A DNA stretch of 64,000 nucleotides from Candidatus Thiodiazotropha sp. (GTDB lineage Bacteria; Pseudomonadota; Gammaproteobacteria; Chromatiales; Chromatiaceae): the NCBI GenBank assembly GCA_040506775.1, contig JBEVWC010000027.1:159801-223800 (forward strand), given 5' to 3'. Each line of letters starts with the position of its first letter. Positions within the stretch are counted from its first letter, which is position 1. A model generated the notes under the pieces. The model worked only from the letters and a program-made list of their open reading frames with translations, was not told where the DNA came from and ran no database searches. Position numbers and translations under genes: made by a program. Shown piece after piece: positions 50,202-64,000 of this stretch.

Positions 50202-51614
50202 TCAAACATCCAGATTGTAACGTTTGATCTTACGCCACAAGGTCGACTTGTCGATGCCAAGAATCTCAGCAGAGAGAGTGCGATCACCATGGGTTTCGCG
50301 CAATGTCTTGCGAATGAAAAAGGCCTCCACATCTTCCAGGCTTTGAGGCGGCAGATGATCGAGAGCCTTGCCCCCCGCCTCACCCAACGGGCTCATCTTG
50401 GCTGGCAGCACATCGGTATCGAGCTTGTCGGATTCCGTCAGAATCATCATGCGTTGAATGACATTTTCCAGCTCCCGCACATTACCGGGCCAATCATGAC
50501 GCATCAATGCACCAAGCGCTGAGGTTGCGATCCCTTTGACCGCCTTGTCGAGCACCTTGGCAAAGCGGTTAATGAAAAAGTAAACCAGTAGCGGGATGTC
50601 ATCACGTCGCTCGCAAAGCGGTGGAATCTCCAGTTCGACCACGGCCAGGCGGTAGTAGAGATCCTCGCGGAATTCACCGTTCTCGATCAACTCTTTCATG
50701 GATCGGTTGCTGGCGGCCAGCAGCCGCACATCGACACTCCTCGCTTCGGTATCACCCATGGGATAGAAAGTACCGTTCTGCACCACCCGTAACAGTTTCG
50801 CCTGCAATGACAGAGAGGCATTGTTGACCTCATCGAGGAACACCGTTCCGCCATCGGCGACCTGAAACAATCCTGGCTTACTGCGTTCGGCCCCGGTGAA
50901 TGCACCTTTCTTGTATCCAAACAACTCACTCTCGATCAAATGCTCAGGTATAGCGGCGCAATTGATAGCGACAAATTCCTTGTCACGGCGCTGACTCTGA
51001 GCATGGATTTGATGTGCCACGACTTCCTTACCCGAACCGCTTGGGCCGGTAATGAGTACCGGACAATCATATCCGGATGTGGCATTGATCATACGCCTAA
51101 CCTGCTGCATGGCCACTGACTGCCCCACCAACCCAGTACCTTCGACGAATAGCTGATTTTCCTTCACCAGTCGCCGGTTCTCCCGACTCAGCTGGTAGTG
51201 TTCCAGGGCACGCTCCACGGTGCAGCGCAATTCAACGTTTTCAAAAGGTTTCCGAATATAGTCGAAGGCACCCGCTTTTAGCGCCTCGATGGCGGATTCC
51301 ACGGTGGCAAATCCCGTTACCAGAATCACCTGGGTCATGGGATCACACTGCTTGGCAAACCTGAGCACATCCATGCCATCGGCTCCCGGCATTTTTAGAT
51401 CGGTGACCACCACGGAGATCTGATGATTCTCCATGTAGTCCATGGCATCGTTAGCCGAGTCCGCGGCGACGATCTCGACCGGAGTTTCGATTGCCGAGAG
51501 CACCTGTACCACCAGGTCGCGCATTCGGGGATCATCCTCGGTAATGAGAATTTTCAAGGTGTTGTCCATCACCGGTTGCTGCTCCTCACATGGTTGCTTT
51601 TCGGCCGCTATCAT
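50202..51614 (-). CDS. NtrC-family sigma54-dependent response regulator
   Basis: Receiver TDLKMPG; Walker A GPSGSGKE; intact ESELFGYKKGAFTGA; WPGNVRELEN; Fis-type HTH. Start may be 51569. Confidence 0.96.
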   Translation of the reverse strand: MIAAEKQPCEEQQPVMDNTLKILITEDDPRMRDLVVQVLSAIETPVEIVAADSANDAMDYMENHQISVVVTDLKMPGADGMDVLRFAKQCDPMTQVILVTGFATVESAIEALKAGAFDYIRKPFENVELRCTVERALEHYQLSRENRRLVKENQLFVEGTGLVGQSVAMQQVRRMINATSGYDCPVLITGPSGSGKEVVAHQIHAQSQRRDKEFVAINCAAIPEHLIESELFGYKKGAFTGAERSKPGLFQVADGGTVFLDEVNNASLSLQAKLLRVVQNGTFYPMGDTEARSVDVRLLAASNRSMKELIENGEFREDLYYRLAVVELEIPPLCERRDDIPLLVYFFINRFAKVLDKAVKGIATSALGALMRHDWPGNVRELENVIQRMMILTESDKLDTDVLPAKMSPLGEAGGKALDHLPPQSLEDVEAFFIRKTLRETHGDRTLSAEILGIDKSTLWRKIKRYNLDV

Positions 51615-52999
51615 GAGCTTTCAATCTCCAGGTATTCCGGCAACTTCACCACGAAGCGGGCCCCCTGTTCATATTCATGGTCAAGCCGAATTTCGGCCCC
51701 TCGTTTCGCCAGCATGGCCTGGCCAATGGACAATCCCAGACCACTGCCTTCTCCAACCTCCTTAGTGGTGAAGAACGGATCGAATATGCGGCTTCTATTT
51801 TCTCTGGACACACCAGGGCCATTGTCTTCGACGCTGACATACACCGAGCCATGGTCGTCGCGCCATGATCGAATGGATATCTTCGCCTGGGTGGTCTGTC
51901 GCAAAGCCTGCATCGCATTCAGCATCAGATTGGTAAGGACGATTTCGAACTCTCCGCAGCCCCCCTGCACTAGCAGAGTGGCAGGATCGAGATCAATCTG
52001 AAGGTCGATCTTCATACGCCGTAAACGGCAACTGATAAAGGTCTCCACCACTTCACCAACAACCTGATTGACATCACAGGAATCGTTGTCACAACGCTCT
52101 CGTCTGGCATAGTTCAGAAGGTCCTGGATGATCCTTGAGCAACGTTTTGCTTCATCGGCAATGATCTCGAGGTACTGAGTCTTCTGTTCGTTATTGTTGC
52201 CCTGAGTATCTCCGAGCAATCGGGTGTAACCGAGAATATTGCCCAATGGAGTATTCAGTTCGTGCGCCACACCAGCGGCAAACTCACCCATTGCCACCAG
52301 CTTCTCACGCATCGCGACGCTCTCTTGGAGTTGACGGTACTCGCTCATGTCCTGCAATGTAATGACCGCACCCATGTCTGCATCCTGCTGGGTCAGAAAC
52401 GAGAGGTTGAGTGAAAAATAGTGCCGCTTGCCATCGATCATCAGGTCGATCTGCTGGTTATACAAAACGCGCTTATAGAGGAAGGTATCGCGAAGGATAT
52501 CCCGGTCACCTTCTTCAAGTTGCAACAGATCGAACAGGTTCTGCCCGACCAGCCCGCCATTTGTAAAATGGAACAACTCCTCAGCCTGACGGTTCACCGA
52601 GTTAATCTTAAGATTGTCGTCGACACTCAAAAGTGCACCAGGAAGACTCTGTAACAAGGCATTGATCTTGTTACGTTCATTCGCCACCCGTCCCTGACAC
52701 TCTTCAACTGTCGAGAACATCGAAGTCAGGATGGCAAGCATGCGATTGTAATCGGTGATGACTCGTCCGACTGCCCCTCCCCGGGAAACATGGGGCGAGA
52801 GGGGTTGCAGCAACCCCTCCTGAGCCTGGAGAATGTTCTCTCGCAAGGCATTGAGTTGCCAGCGTTGATAGAGATAACCAACGATCGCCAGCACGATGCT
52901 CAATACCGCGGCAATACGTAACCAGAGCTGGTCGTCTATGAATGCGACCAGCAACAATACGACAACGACAGCGGCGAAGCCAATCGCCGCTGTCGTCAA
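51611..52999 (-). CDS. PAS sensor histidine kinase cognate to the sigma54 regulator
   Basis: Two adjacent TM helices with no periplasmic domain; PAS; AGVAHELNTP, DNGPG, FDPFFTTK and GSGLGL; ATGA overlap with the regulator. Confidence 0.93.
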   Translation of the reverse strand: MTTAAIGFAAVVVVLLLVAFIDDQLWLRIAAVLSIVLAIVGYLYQRWQLNALRENILQAQEGLLQPLSPHVSRGGAVGRVITDYNRMLAILTSMFSTVEECQGRVANERNKINALLQSLPGALLSVDDNLKINSVNRQAEELFHFTNGGLVGQNLFDLLQLEEGDRDILRDTFLYKRVLYNQQIDLMIDGKRHYFSLNLSFLTQQDADMGAVITLQDMSEYRQLQESVAMREKLVAMGEFAAGVAHELNTPLGNILGYTRLLGDTQGNNNEQKTQYLEIIADEAKRCSRIIQDLLNYARRERCDNDSCDVNQVVGEVVETFISCRLRRMKIDLQIDLDPATLLVQGGCGEFEIVLTNLMLNAMQALRQTTQAKISIRSWRDDHGSVYVSVEDNGPGVSRENRSRIFDPFFTTKEVGEGSGLGLSIGQAMLAKRGAEIRLDHEYEQGARFVVKLPEYLEIESS

Positions 53000-53093: not shown

Positions 53094-54263
53094 TTAAAAG
53101 ATCAGTTGCAGACCCAGAGTCGCCTGATCATAGTCCTGCAGTGAATGGATGCTGGGATGTTCCTCCTCATAGCTAACATTTGCATATTCAAAGGTCACCT
53201 TCAACCTCTGGCCATCGATATAGTAGTTGGCGCCAATACTGTTCCACTGGTTATCGTAGTAGGGACCATCGGTGTCGTAGTCGAGGGCCTCATGGCGATA
53301 GAACAGCTGCAGACGGCCTGGACCCACCGGACTCGGGAACAGGTAACCGAACTTCGCATAATAACCGTCCAACTGGGTGTTGACGGTCAGCTCAGGATCT
53401 GGATTCTGGTTGATAGCATCCCCCACGTCGTAGTCGAAGGCCGCTGCTGAGGCGGTCACCGTTCCAAAATCAAAGGGATATTCGTAAAACACATCCGCCG
53501 TCCAGGCCGTATAGTCCTGAGGATCGGATCGGGCGGGATAATCGGCATAGGCGACGTCTCCCTGGTAATCGTACGCCACACCAAAGGTCAAGACCTTGCG
53601 GGTGCCGAGATAAGTACCCCGGTAACCGTAATCATATTCAGGGTCCAGCATAGTGTAATGGAGGCGGGTGGTGATCCTGGGGGAGTCCTTTACCACTTCG
53701 TCCCCTTCTCGACCGTCGGCGATCATCAGACGATACTGAAGCTTGGCATCTGCCAGATTACCCCAGACTGCCACGCCAGTATCCCGCGTACCACCAAAGG
53801 GTGTATAGGAGAGAACCTCGGACCGATCCAGGGTCAACGGTTCCAGACAGGCCTCAAGATTCTCACGCGAGAAGGTGTTCTTGAAACGACCCACAATGAA
53901 GCGCAGCGGATCCGAGTAGTCCAGGGTAATGTAGGCATCCCGATAATAAACCGAGCGGTCATCGTTCCCGGCACGACTGTCGCTACCCGCTTCCAGTTGA
54001 GCATAGAATCCAATGCTGTCGTTGTATTGACCACTGAGCGTGATCCGATTGCGCCGCAGAAACATATCGGTCTGACTGCCGTCATCCGTGTTTGAAGTGA
54101 AGCTGCGGTACTGGCTCCAGCCCTGAACTGCGTAACTGAGCGTAAGGGAGCCCTGTTCTCCAAACTCTATGGTGGGCCCTGCCTGTGCCGAACCTGCAGC
54201 TGCCAGAGTAACCGCACCGGCTGCCAGCAGGCGCACATATTGCGAATGCTTATTGTTTTTCAC
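53094..54263 (-). CDS. Outer-membrane porin, OprO/P-like (ExtI-like)
   Basis: Signal peptide; FLRRNRITL, YRDAYI, GRFK...SRENL and GRDTG-like motif; terminal LGLQLIF. Confidence 0.82.
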   Translation of the reverse strand: MKNNKHSQYVRLLAAGAVTLAAAGSAQAGPTIEFGEQGSLTLSYAVQGWSQYRSFTSNTDDGSQTDMFLRRNRITLSGQYNDSIGFYAQLEAGSDSRAGNDDRSVYYRDAYITLDYSDPLRFIVGRFKNTFSRENLEACLEPLTLDRSEVLSYTPFGGTRDTGVAVWGNLADAKLQYRLMIADGREGDEVVKDSPRITTRLHYTMLDPEYDYGYRGTYLGTRKVLTFGVAYDYQGDVAYADYPARSDPQDYTAWTADVFYEYPFDFGTVTASAAAFDYDVGDAINQNPDPELTVNTQLDGYYAKFGYLFPSPVGPGRLQLFYRHEALDYDTDGPYYDNQWNSIGANYYIDGQRLKVTFEYANVSYEEEHPSIHSLQDYDQATLGLQLIF

Positions 54264-54771
54264 TGCTTACCCCCTTGCTTGCAACGTACTTGCTCAACAA
54301 TGTGCTGCCCTCATCCCCAGCGTGACACTTGAAACAGAATTTATCGGGTTGAGAGAGCGAGTCGCCCACCATGCCACCATGAGCAATACTCTCCTTCATG
54401 AGACGCGGGTTGCCACCATGACAACCAACGCAGGAGTTGTTGACCCGATCGTGGTCCTGATGCCAGGGCTGACTGGTCGGGGCACCGGCACGTTTGCCGT
54501 TATGGCACTTGAAACAGCTCGAAGCACCAAGACCGCAGGCATTTGCCAGGCGGATGGGTGAAAGTTGAGACAAGCTGTCCTGCAGGGATACGATCGCTGA
54601 ATCGCCCCAACCCTGCGTCGGCTCGGACATCTGCTTGGATAGCGAATCAGGCATTTCTGATGCAGGGGTTAATAACACCGACAGCACCAATCCACTTACC
54701 AAGAGCACCCCGGAAAGCAGTGTGATTCGTCGCAAACCCTGGGTAAATCTGGACAGCAACTTCTTTATCAT
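54250..54771 (-). CDS. Membrane-anchored or exported triheme cytochrome c
   Basis: CFKCH, CVGCH and CFKCH; N-terminal hydrophobic helix; extra Cys in ACGLGASSCFKCH. Confidence 0.88.
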   Translation of the reverse strand: MIKKLLSRFTQGLRRITLLSGVLLVSGLVLSVLLTPASEMPDSLSKQMSEPTQGWGDSAIVSLQDSLSQLSPIRLANACGLGASSCFKCHNGKRAGAPTSQPWHQDHDRVNNSCVGCHGGNPRLMKESIAHGGMVGDSLSQPDKFCFKCHAGDEGSTLLSKYVASKGVSSEKQ

Positions 54772-55087: not shown

Positions 55088-55104
55088 AGCATTTCCTATG
55101 CCAA
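55088..55104 (-). promoter_or_regulatory. sigma54 -24/-12 promoter 3
   Basis: TTGG-CATAGGAAAT-GCT; IHF-like TAACAACGAGTTA in an AT-rich tract just upstream. Confidence 0.75.
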
Positions 55105-55190: not shown

Positions 55191-56417
55191 TCAATTTGCA
55201 ATCCGCCCGTTAACCGGTAGCGACTTGTCCATGCGAATCAGCTCGTAGCGGGTTGCACGGGCATCCGTATAGGCCGTTTCGAGCAGGCCGAGGGAAGCGG
55301 CCGGTAATCGCTCCGGCCGCTCAAGCATTTGTTTGAACATCCGTTCGTAGTGTTCCCTGGGCACTACCGCAACATCCAGGGTCACCACACCGGAGTTCGC
55401 CTCGGTCCATGCCTGCAAACGATGGCTTTCACCGGGGGCTATACGGGTGTCAGCCAGTTCCCGGTTCAAGTCGACATTCACCTGCCAACCGATGGTCGAC
55501 TGCGCAAGACGCTCCGTCTGACCGTCTGTCCTTAGCAGATTCAGGGTCAATACAACCTTCGGCACCATGTAGGTGGGAAAAAGGTGTCCTACATCCACAT
55601 TGGTCAATGAGGCGGAAATCCGATAACGTCCATCCACAGGTGTCACATGCAACTCGGCGCGCACAGCATTGCGCACCATCTGCGGATCATGGATACCGCG
55701 CCAGAGATGCCGGCGGTCGGGCATATGGCAATCCTGACATTGGCGCTGCTCAGCGGCAGCCGGACTTGCCAGCCACTGAGCATAGGTATCCTCCTGCAGC
55801 TTGCCGTTGACGCGTGGGCCCTCCTCCGGAAACTGATGGCAGGACGCACAGAAGCGACTGTCTGAGAACGCCTCGTGAACCGTGAATCCCGCATGCGGCA
55901 GGCGCCCCGTAGGCAGCTCTGCTCGAGGTTCTGGACCGAAGCGTTGATGTCGACGCACATGACAGGCGGCACAAACCAGCCCCTGTTGGTCAAGATCCCC
56001 GCCGACATAGTCCGGTGGTGCTTGCTTTGGCGCGCCCGGCCAGTCAAAACGCAACGCCATCAACGCCTTCTGCTCCGCCAATGGCGCATGACAGTCAAGA
56101 CATTTGTTGGCCTGGGACTGATTCATGAGATGCAGCTGCCACATCAGGCCTGCAGAGACCGTACGGCTATGCAGACTGGTCTGCCAATCCTCCCACTGTC
56201 GCGGGTGACAACTGCCGCATTCGCCAGGTGCCAGGGAACCCTCACGATCTGTGAATCCCTCAGGCAAAGGACCTTGCGGGGCAATAGGGCGTTGCCAGTG
56301 ACGATCGACAAAGGTGTCTATGGTGATCTCTTCACGCGCAAGAAGATAGAAAGCGAGCAACAAACACAACAGCGCCAGAATCAAACCAGACACAATCAAT
56401 CCCACACGCCCATTCAT
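55191..56417 (-). CDS. Pentaheme cytochrome c (c554-like family) with N-terminal membrane anchor
   Basis: CGSCH, CLDCH, CAACH, CASCH, CQDCH and GHLFPT; start moved to 56417 because the longer ORF begins inside a terminator. Confidence 0.88.
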   Translation of the reverse strand: MNGRVGLIVSGLILALLCLLLAFYLLAREEITIDTFVDRHWQRPIAPQGPLPEGFTDREGSLAPGECGSCHPRQWEDWQTSLHSRTVSAGLMWQLHLMNQSQANKCLDCHAPLAEQKALMALRFDWPGAPKQAPPDYVGGDLDQQGLVCAACHVRRHQRFGPEPRAELPTGRLPHAGFTVHEAFSDSRFCASCHQFPEEGPRVNGKLQEDTYAQWLASPAAAEQRQCQDCHMPDRRHLWRGIHDPQMVRNAVRAELHVTPVDGRYRISASLTNVDVGHLFPTYMVPKVVLTLNLLRTDGQTERLAQSTIGWQVNVDLNRELADTRIAPGESHRLQAWTEANSGVVTLDVAVVPREHYERMFKQMLERPERLPAASLGLLETAYTDARATRYELIRMDKSLPVNGRIAN

Positions 56418-56616: not shown

Positions 56617-58107
56617 TTAACCGCCACAGGGGTTTGGGGGAAGCACGCCACCTCCGCTGCTGCCGTTGTCCGGGGCTGGAGTGGTGGAAGAGTCAGAACT
56701 ACCCGAATCGATGATCACACCCTTGTATTCCAGATCCGCAACAATGACGGCATCAGTGCTCGGGGCGTAGGCATTCACGATGTTACGCGGGGTAATCGCT
56801 GCTGGGTCGCCCTGCACACGAAACATACTGACCGTACTCTTATCCGTGCGCCAGGGGGAATCCCAAGGCAGTATCGCATTGCCATCACTCGCCACAACAT
56901 TGGCCATCGAATGCCATTCAGTCATTGCGCCGTCATAAAAACGGGTCGGTAATCCCAGGATGACGCCTGAAGCGACACCCGTGATCATGGCACGAAACGT
57001 GGTTTCGCAGTACGTATAAACCGTATCACCTGCCTGGTAGGCGTTGCCAGCACCGACCCCCTGCAGGGTACCATCGACAAAACCGATCCCCGAGCCGTCA
57101 GTATATCCATCAAGATAGGACTGAATTTCAGCCTTGCTCTTGAAGGTATATCCGGCATCGGTATGCAGCAGATTGGTATAGGCCAACATCAGCGCACCAT
57201 TCGGATGGCCTTGAGTCGCACCGCCATTGCGATAATCTGCATCATCATCCGGACTGTACTCGTCACTACCGCTGGTCGGAAGACTGGTTGGCAGATTGTT
57301 GCCGCGGGCATCCCAGATGAATACCCCGTCACCGAGCAGATTGACATCCTGAGTCGGAGCGATGTTGATCATATCCTCCAGCGTGGCCTGCAGAGCCATG
57401 TTGGCCTCCGGCAGATCAATCACACTCGTGGAACCGTTCATCGGCGGGGTACTGCCCGCTGCGGAGAAATCGGCCGCTGTCATGGCCGTATTGGTACCCA
57501 CCCATTGGTTCCCGCCGTTGAGAATTGCCAGATGTTCTTTCGCAGTTCCCCAGTAACGGAACATATACCAGCATCGTCCGGCACGCATCGTCTGTCCGGC
57601 ACCTGCCGTGCCCTGAGCACAAACCACCATGTCCCGGGTGGGATCTATACCGTATTTGGACATAAAGGTGTCCATACCCCGACCGCTCGGTACCATGCTC
57701 ACGGTTTCGGTCACACCGTTGGAACGGGTCTCAACCCACTCACTACCATCCACCGCATAGGTGAAGATATTGGCGCCGTCCGGTGCAACAAAGTCGTACC
57801 CGGCCTCACCCGCCGATGTCTGCAGAATGACCAGTTTGCCGGTGATGCCTGCGGGTTTGTTGGTAGACCAGCTGTCCAGCCAGCGTTTCAGGGTATTACC
57901 CGTGATCAGACCGTTGACGTTGTCGTCATAGTTGTCAGCAGACTGCTGAGCGATATCGGACGGCATCTGCTCCGCGGTCGCCGACGATGCGCTGACCGTG
58001 GCTCCACTGTCATCGGCGGAACCGACACAACCGGCAAGTCCCAGTGACAGCAATCCAGAGGCCACTAGTGGCACCCCCATTCGGACGAATAGTGTACGTC
58101 GCTTCAT
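56617..58107 (-). CDS. Tandem-rhodanese lipoprotein (ExtH-like sulfurtransferase)
   Basis: Lipobox LAGC; WDARG, GHPNGA, active-site-like YCETTFRA and YDGAMTEW; Ser/Gly linker ending PNPCGG. Confidence 0.82.
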   Translation of the reverse strand: MKRRTLFVRMGVPLVASGLLSLGLAGCVGSADDSGATVSASSATAEQMPSDIAQQSADNYDDNVNGLITGNTLKRWLDSWSTNKPAGITGKLVILQTSAGEAGYDFVAPDGANIFTYAVDGSEWVETRSNGVTETVSMVPSGRGMDTFMSKYGIDPTRDMVVCAQGTAGAGQTMRAGRCWYMFRYWGTAKEHLAILNGGNQWVGTNTAMTAADFSAAGSTPPMNGSTSVIDLPEANMALQATLEDMINIAPTQDVNLLGDGVFIWDARGNNLPTSLPTSGSDEYSPDDDADYRNGGATQGHPNGALMLAYTNLLHTDAGYTFKSKAEIQSYLDGYTDGSGIGFVDGTLQGVGAGNAYQAGDTVYTYCETTFRAMITGVASGVILGLPTRFYDGAMTEWHSMANVVASDGNAILPWDSPWRTDKSTVSMFRVQGDPAAITPRNIVNAYAPSTDAVIVADLEYKGVIIDSGSSDSSTTPAPDNGSSGGGVLPPNPCGG

Positions 58108-58213: not shown

Positions 58214-58230
58214 TGCAGTTTCTATGCCAC
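58214..58230 (-). promoter_or_regulatory. sigma54 -24/-12 promoter 2
   Basis: GTGG-CATAGAAACT-GCA; AT-rich tract immediately upstream. Confidence 0.75.
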
Positions 58231-58365: not shown

Positions 58366-58560
58366 TCACATCGTCTGCCGAATCACCAGCGGCACCGCAC
58401 CGGATGCCAACTGGTCAAGCAATCCCTGATAGTCGTCAGTCAGAGTGACCTCAGCCACCTCCGCGCCACGCTGTTGTAAGCCGTTACGCATACCTTCGAT
58501 CAGGGGGCCGCGTTGCGCATCATTGACATAGATCAGGACAAACGTTTTCTTCTCGCTCAT
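58366..58560 (-). CDS. Small conserved hypothetical protein, last gene of the YeeE-TusA-DsrE block (DsrH/TusB-sized)
   Basis: 64 aa; ATGA overlap with the preceding gene; beta-alpha-beta-alpha-beta pattern. Confidence 0.6.
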   Translation of the reverse strand: MSEKKTFVLIYVNDAQRGPLIEGMRNGLQQRGAEVAEVTLTDDYQGLLDQLASGAVPLVIRQTM

Positions 58561-58802
58561 ATCAGGAACACCACGTTGGAATCCATCAGCCAGTCCGCAA
58601 GCAAGTCGCCACTTTGTGCCGAGACTGTTTCCAGAGGCACTTCAGCGAAATCCAGTGCGTCGAGTTGTTCCTGAGCCGCATCGGACGAATCCAGGTCGCC
58701 ATACACAGCGACACGCACCGCGTCATCCAGCAAGGTCAACCCGGTAGCCATACGCAACGCCTCGATACGATCATGCATGGCCAACATCAGTATGTTTTTC
58801 AC
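58557..58802 (-). CDS. Conserved hypothetical protein, DsrF/TusC-like
   Basis: Probable GTG start 58802 after GAGGA; EALRMATGLTLLDD motif; no Cys. Confidence 0.65.
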   Translation of the reverse strand: MKNILMLAMHDRIEALRMATGLTLLDDAVRVAVYGDLDSSDAAQEQLDALDFAEVPLETVSAQSGDLLADWLMDSNVVFLI

Positions 58803-58833
58803 TTCTGCCAATTCCTCTCTCCTCTCAAACCGC

Positions 58834-59145
58834 TCAGAACACCAGTACCCGATCGCTGTTGTGCACCATCTCCGCGTCCTGATACTGACCACCGATAACG
58901 ACCCGCTGCATCAATTCTTCATCTGTCGTCGTTGGATGGTCATGTCGCTCCATACTCAGTTCACAGACCGCGACATTCAGATCCTGTGTTTTCATCAGAT
59001 CGCAGAAGCCGTCATCCTTCAGCAGCAGTACACCCCGGTCGGTGAGAAAGCAGCGATTGCCCCATCCACGCTCGAAAGATGCCTTGATGACACCAATGGC
59101 GTGTCCGGCCAGCGTCTCGTCGGTAATCACGATACCCAACTGCAT
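58834..59145 (-). CDS. DsrE-like sulfur-relay protein
   Basis: LGIVIT, CFLTDRGV, VCELSM and GGQYQDAEMVHNSDRVLVF; about 100 aa. Confidence 0.75.
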   Translation of the reverse strand: MQLGIVITDETLAGHAIGVIKASFERGWGNRCFLTDRGVLLLKDDGFCDLMKTQDLNVAVCELSMERHDHPTTTDEELMQRVVIGGQYQDAEMVHNSDRVLVF

Positions 59146-59149
59146 GGGA

Positions 59150-59401
59150 TCAGCCCTTTCGGATCTGCCAGGTGAAGGTGCCGCCGCCCTCCTCCCGGTT
59201 CATCAACTCATTACCGGCTGTCTCACACATGGAAATGATGGATTCGCCGGACGAGGGGTTGTCGAAGATCAGGGTCAGCACGTCGCCACTGTCCATCTTC
59301 TGTAGTGCCTTTTTGGTGTACATTTGCGGATGCGGGCAGACGTAACTGGTCACATCCAGCAGATATTGTCCTTCTGCGGTCTGTTCAAATTTCACGGCCA
59401 T
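59150..59401 (-). CDS. TusA/YeeD-family sulfur carrier
   Basis: LDVTSYVCPHP, GDVLTLIFDNPSS; GGAGG RBS before ATG 59401. Confidence 0.92.
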   Translation of the reverse strand: MAVKFEQTAEGQYLLDVTSYVCPHPQMYTKKALQKMDSGDVLTLIFDNPSSGESIISMCETAGNELMNREEGGGTFTWQIRKG

Positions 59402-59469
59402 GGTCGTTGTTCCTCCCAATGATCAATGCTTTCGAAACGATGTCTTGTTCTCTCTGCGTTGCAGCGGCT

Positions 59470-60933
59470 TTAGAAATCGAGTCCGCCTTGACGTGCGGCC
59501 TGCCATTCGACCCACCAGTTGAAGACCTTTACCCCCACGTATCCGCCACCGATCATACCGAGCAAAAAGAGCCAGCCGGTCAGATCGCCGTTGGTAACAG
59601 TGGCGAAAAATGCCCCTACATTGCAGCCCATGCCTACACGGGCACCTATTCCCATCAGCGCACCACCGATAATGGCGAATACCGCAGTTTCAAGATTCGG
59701 TACTTTCCATTTGAACTCCCTACGCAGGTGCGCGATTACAGCAGCACCAAGAATGATGCCGATGGACATAAAACCGGGTGCGTTCAACAGTGGATTCGGT
59801 AGCCCGTAATCGAGGCCGAAGAAGATGGTATCCATGTTCTCCACGCCAAGCTTGTTCAGCAGCCAACCACCCCACTGTGCCTCCTGGGTGGTGATGTACC
59901 AGTAGCCGGGATCGAATACCGTATCCTGAATGGAGAGCCCGCTGCGGTAACCCATGTCCGCCAGCAATTCACCAAAGTTAAAAATACCGTAGTGGTCTCG
60001 CAACGCGCCGATAACCCACATGTGAAGTCCCGCGAAGATGCCCAGTCCAAGACCGGCCCAGGCGGTGTTCTTGGACGAGGTGAACATGGTCCATATCGCC
60101 TTGGAGTGTTGACTAAGGCTCGGTCGATCGATGCCGTTGCGGCGCATATAACCCTTGCGGTAGGTCACGGCATAGAGCGCAAGCAAAATCGCCAGAGCCG
60201 GTAGAATTGCGCCCAACAGAGCATTACCGAAAAACGCCGACCAAACCGGATCCTCAAGTCCCAGACTCTGCGCCACGGTTCCCCCCTTGAGGTCCCACAC
60301 GTAACCCGCCATGAACTGATCGAACCAGCCATCGGTCACGCTCAGTTCTTCCGGCATGCCCTTCTCCATCGCTGAGGCCGTCCAGGAGGCTGGCGCAAGG
60401 GCGTTGCTCCAACTGTCCATGGCGACGAACAGCGCCTGAGAGAAAGAGATCGACACCAGCACCAGCATGGAGCCAATATTGCCTTCACCACTCTTGTACA
60501 AAGAACTGGATGCGCAACCGCCCGTGAAGACGATGCCAAAACCGAAGATCAGACCCCCGATCAGGATATGCCAACCCAGTGGATGAGGGTGAAAGGTATT
60601 GAAGCCACTGACCTGAACGGCTGCAGCGGTTAATGAAAACAGCACCACTGCGATCATCACACCGACCGCCATTCTCGGCACACCCACGGCAAACAGATCG
60701 CGCACAGCGGACGCCATACAGAAACGGCCGTACTGCAACAGCACGCCATAGATCAGACCAAACCAGATATAGACCAACATATAGATAAAACGCTGATCTT
60801 CATTCAGCGCCAGGAGTGAACCCAGCGCGACCAGCCCGAGAATCAATGCGGCATATCGATTGCCTGTTTGACTCAACCAACCACTTTTGGTCCGCGATGC
60901 ATCTAATGTTGTGGTGCTTTCTTGACTGTTCAT
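59470..60933 (-). CDS. YeeE/YedE-family sulfur-compound transporter
   Basis: Three conserved Cys motifs GRFCMASA, GGCASSSLYK and GCNVGAF; multi-TM; AGGAG RBS. Confidence 0.92.
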   Translation of the reverse strand: MNSQESTTTLDASRTKSGWLSQTGNRYAALILGLVALGSLLALNEDQRFIYMLVYIWFGLIYGVLLQYGRFCMASAVRDLFAVGVPRMAVGVMIAVVLFSLTAAAVQVSGFNTFHPHPLGWHILIGGLIFGFGIVFTGGCASSSLYKSGEGNIGSMLVLVSISFSQALFVAMDSWSNALAPASWTASAMEKGMPEELSVTDGWFDQFMAGYVWDLKGGTVAQSLGLEDPVWSAFFGNALLGAILPALAILLALYAVTYRKGYMRRNGIDRPSLSQHSKAIWTMFTSSKNTAWAGLGLGIFAGLHMWVIGALRDHYGIFNFGELLADMGYRSGLSIQDTVFDPGYWYITTQEAQWGGWLLNKLGVENMDTIFFGLDYGLPNPLLNAPGFMSIGIILGAAVIAHLRREFKWKVPNLETAVFAIIGGALMGIGARVGMGCNVGAFFATVTNGDLTGWLFLLGMIGGGYVGVKVFNWWVEWQAARQGGLDF

Positions 60934-60965
60934 ATCTCCTCAACCTTGGCAGAGTGCCTCGTGTT

Positions 60966-61307
60966 TTATTCTTTTCCCGGCAGCATCAATCCCTTGCATA
61001 GGTAGATCCTCCACTGTCGCTGCTCCTTAAGCGTCGCCAGGTGCGTGCTCTCCAGCACCTCCATCAACGACCCCAGCGACTCCACCGAGCTCGGATTGTC
61101 CGAAATCACTTCAATGACTTCACCCTCATGCAGCTGTTCCAGGGCTTTGATCGCCAGCATCTGAGGTCTTGGGCAACTGGCTCCAATGCAATCGATTGTG
61201 ATCGACACCGAAAACTCACCAATACCGGGCAGCGTGACTTGATAATCAACACAGCGACTCATGGCCGATTGGGGTCGACCCGGTCGTCTGAACCATTTCC
61301 AGAACAT
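60966..61307 (-). CDS. Second TusA-family protein with an N-terminal extension
   Basis: IDCIGASCPRP, GEVIEVISDNPSS; GGAGGAG RBS before ATG 61307. Confidence 0.85.
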   Translation of the reverse strand: MFWKWFRRPGRPQSAMSRCVDYQVTLPGIGEFSVSITIDCIGASCPRPQMLAIKALEQLHEGEVIEVISDNPSSVESLGSLMEVLESTHLATLKEQRQWRIYLCKGLMLPGKE

Positions 61308-61449
61308 CTTCTCCTCCACACAGCCGTTATCGCTGCGAGTCGTGTATGTCCCGTTGGCATCCGCTGATCTCATGGTTCTGATTTCGCCTACCCAATCTCT
61401 CCGCGAAACTTTGCAAACGCACGCATACGCATGCAGTCATATGCTAAAT

Positions 61450-61466
61450 AGCAGAGACCATGCCAA
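61450..61466 (-). promoter_or_regulatory. sigma54 -24/-12 promoter 1
   Basis: TTGG-CATGGTCTCT-GCT; AT-rich tract upstream, then several TTGCA motifs. Confidence 0.72.
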
Positions 61467-61942: not shown

Positions 61943-64000
61943 TCATCTTCTCAAAAGGAGCTGTTCGTACCGACCAGCGCGTGATCGGTCATGGCGATTC
62001 CGATACAGCACCAACAACGCCAGGAGCAGCAGACTCCAAACCGTGACAGCACCGCCGCCACCGCCACCTGAGGAGGTGCCGGTATCCGCATCCCCATCTT
62101 CGGATGATGCGGCAAGCGTCACGCCGCCGGGATCCGAGATACCACCGTCCGTCTCTCCGTCCGCATCGTTGGGACCACCATCCTGCACGGTTAACTCAAC
62201 ACACCAGTCCCCCGGGTTCAACCCATCCACATAGGCACTGTCCCCCGGGGAGGGGCAATGTCCTTGAGATCCCCGGGCCGACTTGAGCGTATTGGCGCTA
62301 TCGACAATAAACTCCTGCCAAGCTGTGGGCATCTGTTTGCGATAGACCGCGTCAGCGGCAATCGGCTGTAATTGGGGAAGCACCACCTTCACGCTCGCAC
62401 CAACCCCGGCAATCCCTTCGATTCGAAAATCAAACAGCCCCGCTTCGTAGACATAGTCATCTGAATCCAATACGCCACCCTGCCCGCTCGCGATGTAATG
62501 CTCGATGTCGCTCACGCTAATCCCCGCGCCGCTGTGCTGATTGAAAAATGCCACATCGCCCAGACTCAGACTCAAACCCGGTTCCGTTTCGATGAGATAT
62601 TCCGTTGGACTTGCACTGCTCTGAGCCAGGACATTACCCGGCAAGCCATCAGGGTCCAGATAATCCACGATACCGTCTCCATCCTGATCGCCAGCACCTT
62701 CATCGAGATCGGAGATCCCATCGCCATCCTGGTCGCTTCCAGGCTCAAGCGCGGGGGCTTGATCCACAACAAGAAGCGTCAGTTCAGATCTTGCGAGCGC
62801 GGAACCGTCGCTAACCTGCACCCTTACCCGATACAACCCGGAGGCCATCTGCTCAGGATCGAGGGTCAGACTGCTTGGCTCATCGTCGATATCCTCCAAC
62901 AATACGTCAGTGCCGCTCCAGTCATAGGTATGGGTGTCATCCGCATTCAGATCCTCCACAGAGGCGCTGACCGTAACCGGACCGTTGGTCTTGGCCACGA
63001 TGCGGTGTACGGTCCCATTTTGTTCTGCGGCCAAGCTGACATCCGGTGCGAAATTCTCATTGCTTAAGGCAATGCGACAGGTTGGCTTCTCACCCAACAC
63101 CGCATTCGTGGGTTGATCCATGCTCAACAGCAGACTTTGGTACTCCGTTAAACGGGGCAGCATATAATCCGGTATGCGGATTGTGGGGGGCTGCTCTTTG
63201 CCATCGATTATCAGGACGTCATGACGTAGCGTGTGCTGAGTCTGGTCAGCGGCCAATACCGCACTCAGCGTATAGGGCACGCTAACAGGATATCGGGCCG
63301 GTGCGCCATTCATCAGCAGGGAACACTCGAACGGACCCGCCGGAGACGCGGCGCGGTCCCGGTCGAACTGAATGAGCGGATCGACTCGTACGATCTGGAT
63401 CGCCTCTCCCGAGCGAACCTCCCCATCATTGACCGACCAGGTGAGCAGATGCGTCCCGGGGACCAAATAGAGCCGGGTCGGATCAGAGGGCAGCGCCTGT
63501 TCGACGCCGTTGCTGACCAGACGCTTCAAATAGGTCTCCAACTCATCGCCCTGATCATCCTGGGCGGTCGCCCTACCCGCATCGACCTCGGTCAGCGTTC
63601 CGCTTGCGGGGCGGGTAAAGTCGTCCGGCGCGACCACCACCGGTTGTCCCGCGGACACAACCGGTCCCGTGTTGATCGCTTGCGGGACAAAATCACACCT
63701 CCCCGTGCCTCCCGAGCGATATTGGACAGTCGCCGAAATCAGGTGATTCACATCATCTACGGTCGGCACATAGGTGGTGCTGTTCGCGGCAACTAAAAAT
63801 CTGTTGTATGAGTATATAGGGGAAGCCCGTTCCCACAGAAAAGCCACCAAACAATCGTCCGCGAGATATAAACTGCTGGTATCGATGCTTAACACGGCAT
63901 CTTCGGCGACCGAACCTCGAAGGTAGATTGCGCCAACCGGCGTATCGTCGACGTTCACGACGGGATCCATCGTACGCAGCGAACTCAGCTGTTCCCGATT
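61943..64000 (-). CDS. Large cell-surface protein (5' end outside the window) with Ig-like repeats, TSP3-like Ca-binding repeats, a choice-of-anchor-U-like domain and GlyGly-CTERM
   Basis: Frame open to the window edge; DQDGDGISD/DQDGDGIVDYLD; CVELTVQDGGPNDADG; GGGGGAVTVWSLLLLALLVLYRNR tail. Confidence 0.85.
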   Translation of the reverse strand, partial: NREQLSSLRTMDPVVNVDDTPVGAIYLRGSVAEDAVLSIDTSSLYLADDCLVAFLWERASPIYSYNRFLVAANSTTYVPTVDDVNHLISATVQYRSGGTGRCDFVPQAINTGPVVSAGQPVVVAPDDFTRPASGTLTEVDAGRATAQDDQGDELETYLKRLVSNGVEQALPSDPTRLYLVPGTHLLTWSVNDGEVRSGEAIQIVRVDPLIQFDRDRAASPAGPFECSLLMNGAPARYPVSVPYTLSAVLAADQTQHTLRHDVLIIDGKEQPPTIRIPDYMLPRLTEYQSLLLSMDQPTNAVLGEKPTCRIALSNENFAPDVSLAAEQNGTVHRIVAKTNGPVTVSASVEDLNADDTHTYDWSGTDVLLEDIDDEPSSLTLDPEQMASGLYRVRVQVSDGSALARSELTLLVVDQAPALEPGSDQDGDGISDLDEGAGDQDGDGIVDYLDPDGLPGNVLAQSSASPTEYLIETEPGLSLSLGDVAFFNQHSGAGISVSDIEHYIASGQGGVLDSDDYVYEAGLFDFRIEGIAGVGASVKVVLPQLQPIAADAVYRKQMPTAWQEFIVDSANTLKSARGSQGHCPSPGDSAYVDGLNPGDWCVELTVQDGGPNDADGETDGGISDPGGVTLAASSEDGDADTGTSSGGGGGGAVTVWSLLLLALLVLYRNRHDRSRAGRYEQLLLRR

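Follow-up and report, generated by a model that had tools for sequence, protein, structure and literature searches.

We have analysed a gene that encodes a rhodanese-like lipoprotein, and the gene cluster around it, in a 64,000-nt stretch of the genome of Candidatus Thiodiazotropha sp., a clam symbiont; this whole stretch is called the window, and positions are those of the window unless another locus is named. The gene is the minus-strand open reading frame (ORF) 56617-58107, which encodes, stop codon TAA included, a protein of 496 amino acids (P0001) and carries a GGAGGA ribosome-binding site 8 nt upstream of its ATG at 58107. It lies in a cluster of 12-13 genes, all on the minus strand, in the order: a block of sulfur-relay genes ('YTD' block), the rhodanese, a pentahaem cytochrome (cyt5), a trihaem cytochrome (cyt3), an ExtI porin, a sensor kinase and an NtrC-type sigma54 activator (Table 1). 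The N-terminus of P0001, MKRRTLFVRMGVPLVASGLLSLGLAGC (MKRRTLF...LGLAGC), is a signal peptide with a lipobox around Cys27, the segment YTYCETTFRA contains Cys367, and the chain ends with ...KGVIIDSGSSDSSTTPAPDNGSSGGGVLPPNPCGG followed by TAA (another extract of the same end reads ...YKGVIIDSGSSDSSTTPAPDNGSSGGGVLPPNPCGG), the tail Cys being Cys494. A preliminary description of this DNA had proposed a membrane-tethered rhodanese which both makes a persulfide and delivers it, through a flexible C-terminal Cys-Gly-Gly arm like that of SoxY, to the neighbouring cytochromes, porin or YeeE. All elements that it named, including the low-complexity linker running into CGG and the stop codon, were found in place.

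A species survey with one genome per species detected relatives in 176 species, and the best 80 loci returned have been analysed. The 120 closest database homologues (51-86% identity) nearly all end in [L/A]-P-x-N-P-C-G-G after an unconserved Ser/Gly/Thr-rich stretch. Among the 80 orthologues, each from a different species, 79 have the N-P-C-G(G) end: NPCGG in 61, and a Cys-Gly end, mostly NPCG, in about 15. Three glycines follow the tail Cys in two orthologues, and none follows it in the true ExtH proteins described below. As judged from the alignments, the strictly conserved element is a Cys no more than three residues from the C-terminus, not the two glycines. The preliminary description would have been refuted by a terminal Cys that is not conserved; this refutation fails, the Cys being strongly conserved, while the Gly-Gly pair is not strictly so. 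The single tail-less orthologue (L065, from a Burkholderiaceae metagenome-assembled genome) ends in ...QEQRP, which may reflect a frameshift or an assembly error. Between a conserved Tyr-Lys and the Cys the orthologues have a linker of 16-31 residues (median 19; Gly 38%, Ser 18%, Thr 12%) whose sequence is not conserved. Synonymous variation occurs at all eight tail codons across the 80 loci, hence selection acts on the tail peptide, and an RNA or DNA element as the reason for the conservation is ruled out. When ORFs ending in CG, CGG or CGGG in the 4.47-Mb genome were screened by eye, the sole other plausible protein was the true SoxY (...VTIGGCGG).

The rhodanese nature of P0001 is seen at the level of structure. 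No Pfam model matches P0001, even at E<=10 and with the Rhodanese model PF00581 included; a precomputed PF00581 match is present on some of its homologues. A phmmer search against the sequences of the PDB gave only a weak match, of the Cys367 active-site region to the sulfur transferase 8k55. The AlphaFold model, built on an alignment of 142 sequences, has an overall predicted local distance difference test score (pLDDT) of 89.2 and a predicted template modelling score of 0.86, with a confident core at residues 45-462 (about 97) and disordered ends at residues 1-35 and 463-496 (below 50 at 26-35, rising by 45; 40-54 in the linker). The core is matched best in Foldseek by RhdA of A. vinelandii (1e0c, E 2.4e-11), followed by bovine rhodanese (1rhd), 3-mercaptopyruvate sulfurtransferases and YnjE (matches including 8q5z and 4jgt, E 1e-9 to 1e-11). 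On these predicted structures, the assignment of P0001 as a divergent, enlarged tandem rhodanese holds at the fold level. The catalytic-loop pattern C-x4-R-[A/S/T] of the C-terminal rhodanese domain is matched by CETTFRA, and Cys367 is retained in 81/81 orthologues and in 124 of the 142 family members. The tandem-rhodanese fold and the flexible tail of the preliminary description are borne out by structure prediction, and the lipobox and active-site Cys are intact.

The lipobox LAGC agrees with the pattern [LVI][ASTVI][GAS]C, and its Cys27 is retained in 140 of the 142 family members. The following residue is Gly in 67 of the 80 orthologues and Asp in two. In E. coli the residue after the lipobox Cys decides the membrane to which a lipoprotein is sorted, and by this rule the Gly suggests an outer-membrane destination for P0001. 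Within the core, Cys163 and Cys179 co-vary perfectly (both present in 41 orthologues, neither in 40), which is how a disulfide pair of an exported protein should behave. Together with the Gly that follows Cys27, the pair is in keeping with a protein that lies outside the cytoplasm and is sorted to the outer membrane. Two further Cys columns (C-x6-C, in an insert near residue 284) are filled in 41 and 44 of 81 orthologues and possibly form an alternative disulfide.

Table 1 Features of the rhodanese gene and its surroundings in the window
Feature	Position	Strand	Basis or remark
Rhodanese gene (P0001)	56617..58107	-	translation of the window
Signal peptide and lipobox L-A-G-C (residues 24-27, Cys27)	58027..58107	-	Cys27 conservation
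N-terminal tether, disordered (residues 28-44)	57976..58026	-	AlphaFold pLDDT
Folded tandem-rhodanese core (residues 45-462)	56722..57975	-	AlphaFold, Foldseek
Cys163	57617..57619	-	
Cys179	57569..57571	-	
Rhodanese active-site loop C367-E-T-T-F-R-A	56989..57009	-	conservation, 8k55 alignment
Flexible low-complexity linker (residues 463-488)	56644..56721	-	pLDDT
Terminal motif L-P-P-N-P-C-G-G	56620..56643	-	conservation in orthologues
Tail Cys494	56626..56628	-	
Pentahaem cytochrome cyt5, MccSep/ExtKL-like	55191..56417	-	adjacent to rhodanese gene in 78/80 loci
Trihaem cytochrome cyt3	54250..54771	-	present in 75/80 loci
Cys79 of cyt3	54535..54537	-	
ExtI porin	53094..54263	-	NF040900 porin_ExtI, 352.8 bits (cut-off 150)
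Cys139 of ExtI	53847..53849	-	
Sensor kinase and NtrC-type sigma54 activator	50202..52999	-	present in 68-70/80 loci
YTD block: TusA, YeeE/YedE, TusA, DsrE-like, two small conserved proteins	58366..61373	-	Pfam, NCBIfam
Sigma54-type -24/-12 element TGGCATAGAAACTGCA, 5' of rhodanese gene	58214..58229	-	pattern match
Second sigma54-type element	61450..61465	-	pattern match
Third sigma54-type element	55088..55103	-	pattern match
Intrinsic-terminator-like hairpin and T-run, 65 nt past the stop codon	56532..56551	-	8-bp stem with 7 G-C pairs, then CTTTTTTT

The best curated family for P0001 is NCBIfam NF040901, ExtH ('selenite/tellurite reduction operon rhodanese-like protein ExtH'), with 116.6 bits; the cut-off is 200, and this equivalog threshold is not reached by P0001, the score of a true member, P0252, being 280.5 bits. 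The other ExtH traits (a lipoprotein signal, a tandem-rhodanese core and an ExtI porin in the same cluster) are present. The database search returned 603 homologues of P0001, and 265 relatives were counted among 1.8 billion cluster representatives. In a tree of the core region, built without the tail residues, P0001 falls into a clade of sulfur oxidisers in which 67 of 71 members have a CGG-type tail, and separate clades are formed by true ExtH, by a third tail-bearing group (GNACGG/GNPCG) and by two tail-less groups. On its core sequence P0001 is a member of a sister clade of Geobacter ExtH.

ExtH of Geobacter (GSU2940, encoded in extHIJKL(MNOPQS)) resembles P0001 in being a tandem-rhodanese lipoprotein with ExtI and a pentahaem cytochrome of the MccSep/ExtKL type in its cluster, and in its Gly/Ser-rich C-terminal thread with a Cys tip. 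It differs in that P0001 is only 27% identical to a true ExtH and stands in a separate clade, that the P0001 tail is N-P-C-G-G and not G-G-G-C, and that the partner cytochrome of P0001 is devoid of the Cys and selenocysteine (Sec) discussed below. The cluster in the window also lacks ExtJ, ExtM-S and the Rieske/cytochrome b genes of the Geobacter ext cluster, has a YeeE/TusA/DsrE block and a two-component system of the sigma54 type fused to it instead, and belongs to hosts that are sulfur oxidisers and not sulfur/metal reducers.

The 142 family members have been sorted by their tails with simple end-of-sequence patterns, and some of the metagenomic proteins among them may be truncated: 77 end in C-G(G), 16 have Cys as the last residue, 10 have Cys with one to four further residues, 10 have a ...PGY-type end, and 29 have no tail, the chain ending at a DKAYK motif. 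Cys-tipped tails occur in three of the family's main clades, and at least 10 gains or losses are needed on the core tree. P0252 itself ends in Cys, and of 100 full-length relatives of this protein 96 have a Gly-rich linker that is closed by a terminal Cys; hosts of such Cys-terminal ExtH include Geobacter metallireducens, Geobacter sp. M21, G. grbiciae, Trichlorobacter lovleyi and Desulfuromonas thiophila. From these 96 proteins it follows that the Cys-tipped thread is a hallmark of the ExtH superfamily, of which NPCGG is the variant of the sulfur-oxidiser clade; the hallmark is an observation of this survey and no published criterion. Missing from the preliminary description were the place of P0001 in a clade of the ExtH family, the identity of the porin as a true ExtI and the family-wide occurrence of Cys-tipped tails in ExtH.

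Several individual sequences depart from these patterns. The ExtH-clade proteins P0199, P0235, P0241, P0242, P0257, P0260, P0262, P0332 and P0350 end in ...A/T-P-G-Y(-G-G/N), a Tyr-tipped tail taking the place of the Cys tip. A C-terminal Cys (...QGC-stop) was also found in ExtJ (NF040942) of true Ext clusters (L087:10709-11020 and L094:8696-9010). At L092:7001-10055 a tail-less paralogue adjoins an ExtH-like protein that ends in ...DNPCIL and has its rhodanese site occupied by Asp, and this pair sits within an aryl-polyene/LolA-like lipid gene cluster.

Whether the end of P0001 might be read differently has been considered in several ways. C-terminal Sec is known from UshA-like proteins (PCGU) and from thioredoxin reductase (GCUG). 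A Sec read-through after CGG, suggested by 'PCGU' and by matches to the ExtKL selenoprotein, is ruled out by the TAA codon and the lack of conserved downstream sequence: the stop codons of the 80 loci are TGA in 64, TAA in 15 and TAG in one, TAA being used here and in the nearest relatives, and no conserved extension beyond the stop is present in these loci. A sorting tag of the GlyGly-CTERM/PEP-CTERM type is likewise ruled out, the chain stopping at the motif without a hydrophobic helix. A more general proposal, in which the tip binds a metal or metalloid (Se, Te, Cu, Fe, Hg) or acts as a sorting or modification signal without taking part in sulfur transfer, appears very improbable to us. It can draw on the name of the relatives, taken from a 'selenite/tellurite reduction operon', and on the YedE/YedF-type neighbours, which are also linked to selenium; but the hosts oxidise sulfur, the cluster has TusA and DsrE-like sulfur-relay genes, and known C-terminal sorting tags carry beyond their motif the helix that is missing here.

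The comparison with SoxY made in the preliminary description stands as an analogy and not as homology. Both chains end in a Cys and two glycines, the Cys thus being the third residue from the end, on a flexible arm of an extracytoplasmic protein in a cytochrome c context. In P0001, however, the Cys is preceded by N-P and not by G-G (with one Gly only after it in about 15 of the 80 orthologues), 31 residues separate the conserved Tyr-Lys from Cys494 as against the short arm of SoxY, and the arm is fused to its own sulfurtransferase and a lipid anchor. Homology to SoxY is ruled out, P0001 having no SoxY domain and the sole PF13501 match of the genome being the true SoxY on contig C3; no SoxZ-like gene was recognised in the cluster by Pfam and NCBIfam annotation.

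The order rhodanese-cyt5-cyt3-ExtI is fixed in 74-78 of the 80 species. The partners named in the preliminary description (cytochromes, porin, YeeE) are real conserved neighbours, and two of them, the porin and the trihaem cytochrome, have an invariant spare Cys each. ExtI, whose gene is two genes downstream of the rhodanese gene in 74 of the 80 loci, contains exactly one Cys, Cys139 (ENLEAC), in 75/75 sequences. The AlphaFold model of ExtI (pLDDT 84.9) is a 16-strand barrel with OprP and OprO as the best Foldseek matches, and Cys139 is placed in a long loop with a short helix (residues 129-159) between strands 5 and 6, which by strand count would be the loop-3 constriction. RENLEAC is also present in ExtI of the true Ext locus L087 (40% identity) and in that of G. 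metallireducens, as its single Cys. In the ExtI paper the words 'only one cysteine' appear just as a trait typical of outer-membrane proteins (PMC5877670).

These properties of ExtI allow a tether to be envisaged in which the tail Cys is covalent or structural and makes a disulfide or polysulfide bridge to the loop Cys of the porin, plugging it or anchoring P0001 to it instead of bringing sulfur to an enzyme. The invariance and loop-3 position of the single ExtI Cys agree with it, a thin Gly/Ser thread could fit the porin lumen, and in Geobacter the outer-membrane localisation of ExtH depends on ExtI, according to PMC8981825, citing Jahan 2019. A pure tether, however, needs no conserved P-x-N-P-C-G-G peptide, and the lipid anchor already holds the protein at the membrane. 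Two loci of a distant lineage (L090:4103-9666 and L093:7001-12550) also speak against it. There, two ExtH-like lipoprotein paralogues are encoded, a tail-less one and one ending in ...GGGNACGG, in an operon made up of the tail-less paralogue, two small proteins, the tail-bearing rhodanese and, directly downstream, a pentahaem cytochrome; the proteins encoded in it include one of 122 amino acids. ExtI is not recognisable in either locus, and the adjoining putative barrel of 315 amino acids, with an OMP-like (outer membrane protein) C-terminal end NFPFNL, has zero Cys. We regard the tether as improbable.

The pentahaem neighbour cyt5 is related to MccSep (ExtKL) of G. sulfurreducens: its family profile matches the 2026 structure PDB 9wt8 with E 3.6e-11, although cyt5 reaches only 40 bits on the ExtKL family, far under the cut-off of 250. 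MccSep is a periplasmic polysulfide reductase in which haem 2 is ligated by Cys239 and Sec325 is the nucleophile, and its authors state the sulfur entry route and the transfer components feeding the enzyme to be unknown (PMC13510729). We have aligned 78 cyt5-type sequences with ExtKL of G. metallireducens read through its TGA. In 79/79 sequences the five haem motifs fall into register, and GH-x-x-P, a motif of the Ig-like domain, is common to cyt5 and MccSep. The two families differ at the catalytic positions: at that of Cys239 cyt5 has Q, L, H, R or M, and at that of Sec325 (GH-x-F-P-T-Y-[M]-V-P-K) Met in 59, Leu in 9, Val in 7 and Ser in 2, with Cys in 0/78 at either. Beyond the ten haem cysteines no conserved Cys is present in cyt5 of the orthologous loci. 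By sequence, cyt5 is a distinct and apparently undescribed branch with an MccSep-like scaffold and no catalytic chalcogens of its own. The trihaem cytochrome cyt3 contains an extra Cys79 in a C-x6-CxxCH arrangement, seven residues before its first CxxCH, in 76/76 sequences; this Cys may serve as a thiolate ligand of a haem or as a site for a persulfide.

The empty catalytic positions, in a scaffold that agrees with MccSep over the five haems and GH-x-x-P, raise the possibility that Cys494 acts in trans as the catalytic residue or axial haem ligand of cyt5, replacing Cys239 and/or Sec325 in a composite enzyme. A carrier Cys entering a haem active site has a precedent in SoxAX and SoxY. A parallel between MccSep and SoxAX has been drawn in PMC13510729. 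The types of tail and cytochrome are also distributed in agreement with this idea. The L090/L093 cytochrome carries GAGH[K/F]FPTYSVPK and is without Cys or Sec, so that tails of the N-[P/A]-C-G-G type go with a cytochrome lacking Cys and Sec in two clades and the GGGC tip with the Sec enzyme, in a small sample uncorrected for phylogeny; the cluster of G. metallireducens has ExtH (...GGGGGGC), a one-Cys ExtI, ExtJ (...ELQGC) and the Sec-containing ExtKL together. This evidence is correlative and comes from few lineages, and the site may be completed by another residue of cyt5, such as the Met that most sequences have at the Sec position. A composite enzyme seems unlikely to us.

The reading that we prefer, to which we give a probability of roughly 0.55, is that P0001 belongs to the ExtH superfamily as a sulfurtransferase which is anchored in the outer membrane and faces the periplasm, and that its thread is a mobile sulfur-carrier arm. 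In its favour, of the two paralogues in L090/L093 it is the tail-bearing one that adjoins the Cys/Sec-less cytochrome, and the tail-less relative P0146 has no porin or cytochrome alongside. The tail would then be a persulfide carrier similar to that of SoxY but of separate origin, a view of its chemistry that we hold with the same confidence. Reduced sulfur (polysulfide, sulfane sulfur derived from S0, or thiosulfate) would enter the periplasm via the ExtI anion porin, where the loop-3 Cys139 may hold it transiently. A persulfide would form on Cys367 of the rhodanese, and the sulfane sulfur would be exchanged from there to Cys494 at the tip of the Gly/Ser/Thr thread. The conserved [L/A]-P-x-N-P-C-G-G end would dock into a partner, most likely the adjacent MccSep-like cyt5, at which the Cys-bound sulfur would be oxidised or reductively cleaved, and the product would be handed to the cytoplasmic YeeE, TusA and DsrE-like complex. 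In these sulfur oxidisers the redox step might oxidise sulfide or persulfide, as against the reduction of polysulfide in Geobacter.

Periplasmic rhodaneses supplying polysulfide sulfur to sulfur reductases are known in Sud and SbdP, both of which have a single domain. SbdP is attributed to Aussignargues 2012 in PMC6148476. P0001 as interpreted here would share with these two the role of a periplasmic sulfur supplier to a respiratory sulfur enzyme; they differ from it in being soluble, single-domain proteins without a lipid anchor or a C-terminal Cys arm.

Some observations weigh against the carrier arm. There are 29 tail-less proteins among the 142 family members which yet retain the active-site Cys, and in the class with one to four residues after the Cys the rhodanese Cys is changed to Asp in 7 of 10 with the tail Cys retained; the two cysteines therefore need not cooperate. 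The MccSep with which true ExtH pairs possesses a Cys and a Sec itself, and the loss of these residues from cyt5 is therefore not needed for a tail. In the single-chain AlphaFold model the tail is not docked at the active site, and free thiols in the oxidising periplasm may just form a disulfide.

A related explanation makes the tail Cys a resolving or regulatory residue, forming an intramolecular di- or trisulfide with Cys367 which releases the product or gates or protects the site, with no transfer to a partner. The linker is always at least 16 residues long, in principle enough to fold back onto the core, and 80-81 of 81 orthologues retain both cysteines. A comparable arrangement is known from thioredoxin reductase with its C-terminal redox arm. 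We nevertheless doubt this explanation: the proline-rich conserved peptide around the Cys suggests recognition of a partner, the members with Asp at the rhodanese site still have the tail Cys, and the strict linkage to cytochrome and porin genes would be left unexplained.

The carrier arm can be extended to the cell surface. Thiols of the outer membrane that activate elemental sulfur have been postulated but not identified (PMC3440390, PMC10045233), and ExtI together with the Cys-tipped thread might be these long-sought thiols, a proposal we put forward as a speculative one with a small chance of being right. The Gly/Ser thread, which with 16-31 residues could in principle span a barrel, would enter the lumen of ExtI. 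At the cell surface its thiolate, alone or via Cys139, would attack S8 or polysulfide, and the polysulfide chain bound in this way would be pulled back into the periplasm and processed by the rhodanese core and the Cys/Sec-less cyt5 in a composite site, followed by import through YeeE. If true, a covalent thiol relay would run through a beta-barrel, both in the sulfur oxidisers of this clade and in sulfur reducers with ExtH and ExtI such as Geobacter.

The cluster bears on how bacteria bring reactive or insoluble sulfur across the outer membrane to periplasmic enzymes. Its four invariant cysteines, in the porin loop, the rhodanese site, the tail tip and the trihaem cytochrome, are candidate residues for mutation within one conserved cluster and give the postulated outer-membrane thiols testable positions. 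The analysis also links the Geobacter Ext system to sulfur oxidisers, brings to light a family of MccSep-like cytochromes without catalytic chalcogens of their own, and would, on the carrier-arm reading, extend the principle of SoxY to a different fold. No papers on the tail, on a functional ExtI Cys or on the proteobacterial cluster were found in a literature search from which subscription journals were largely out of reach.

About 70-78 of the 80 species have the whole cluster in this gene order, and the YTD block adjoins the rhodanese gene in 73-77 loci. Such a block is known from sulfur disproportionators and cable bacteria (PMC13047784). The hosts of the cluster are sulfur oxidisers; carriers among the 80 loci include Ca. 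Thiodiazotropha (86% identical), Thiohalomonas, Thiohalobacter, Thiogranum, Thiobacillus, Sideroxydans, Rubrivivax and other Burkholderiales, and a homologue (ACL71172.1) has been found at the protein level in Thioalkalivibrio sulfidiphilus HL-EbGr7. Cultivable carriers also include Thiobacillus denitrificans and Thiohalobacter thiocyanaticus.

The sigma54-type pattern TGGCAT-N6-TGCW has 5 matches in the window against 0.94 expected, and three such elements on the minus strand split the cluster. With an element of this type of its own and a terminator-like hairpin behind it, the rhodanese gene looks like a separate transcription unit, and this arrangement suggests separate, possibly higher expression of the gene. 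Just upstream of the sulfur cluster, the minus-strand ORF 61943-63970 encodes a secreted protein of 675 amino acids with a choice-of-anchor U domain and a GlyGly-CTERM (rhombosortase) tail.

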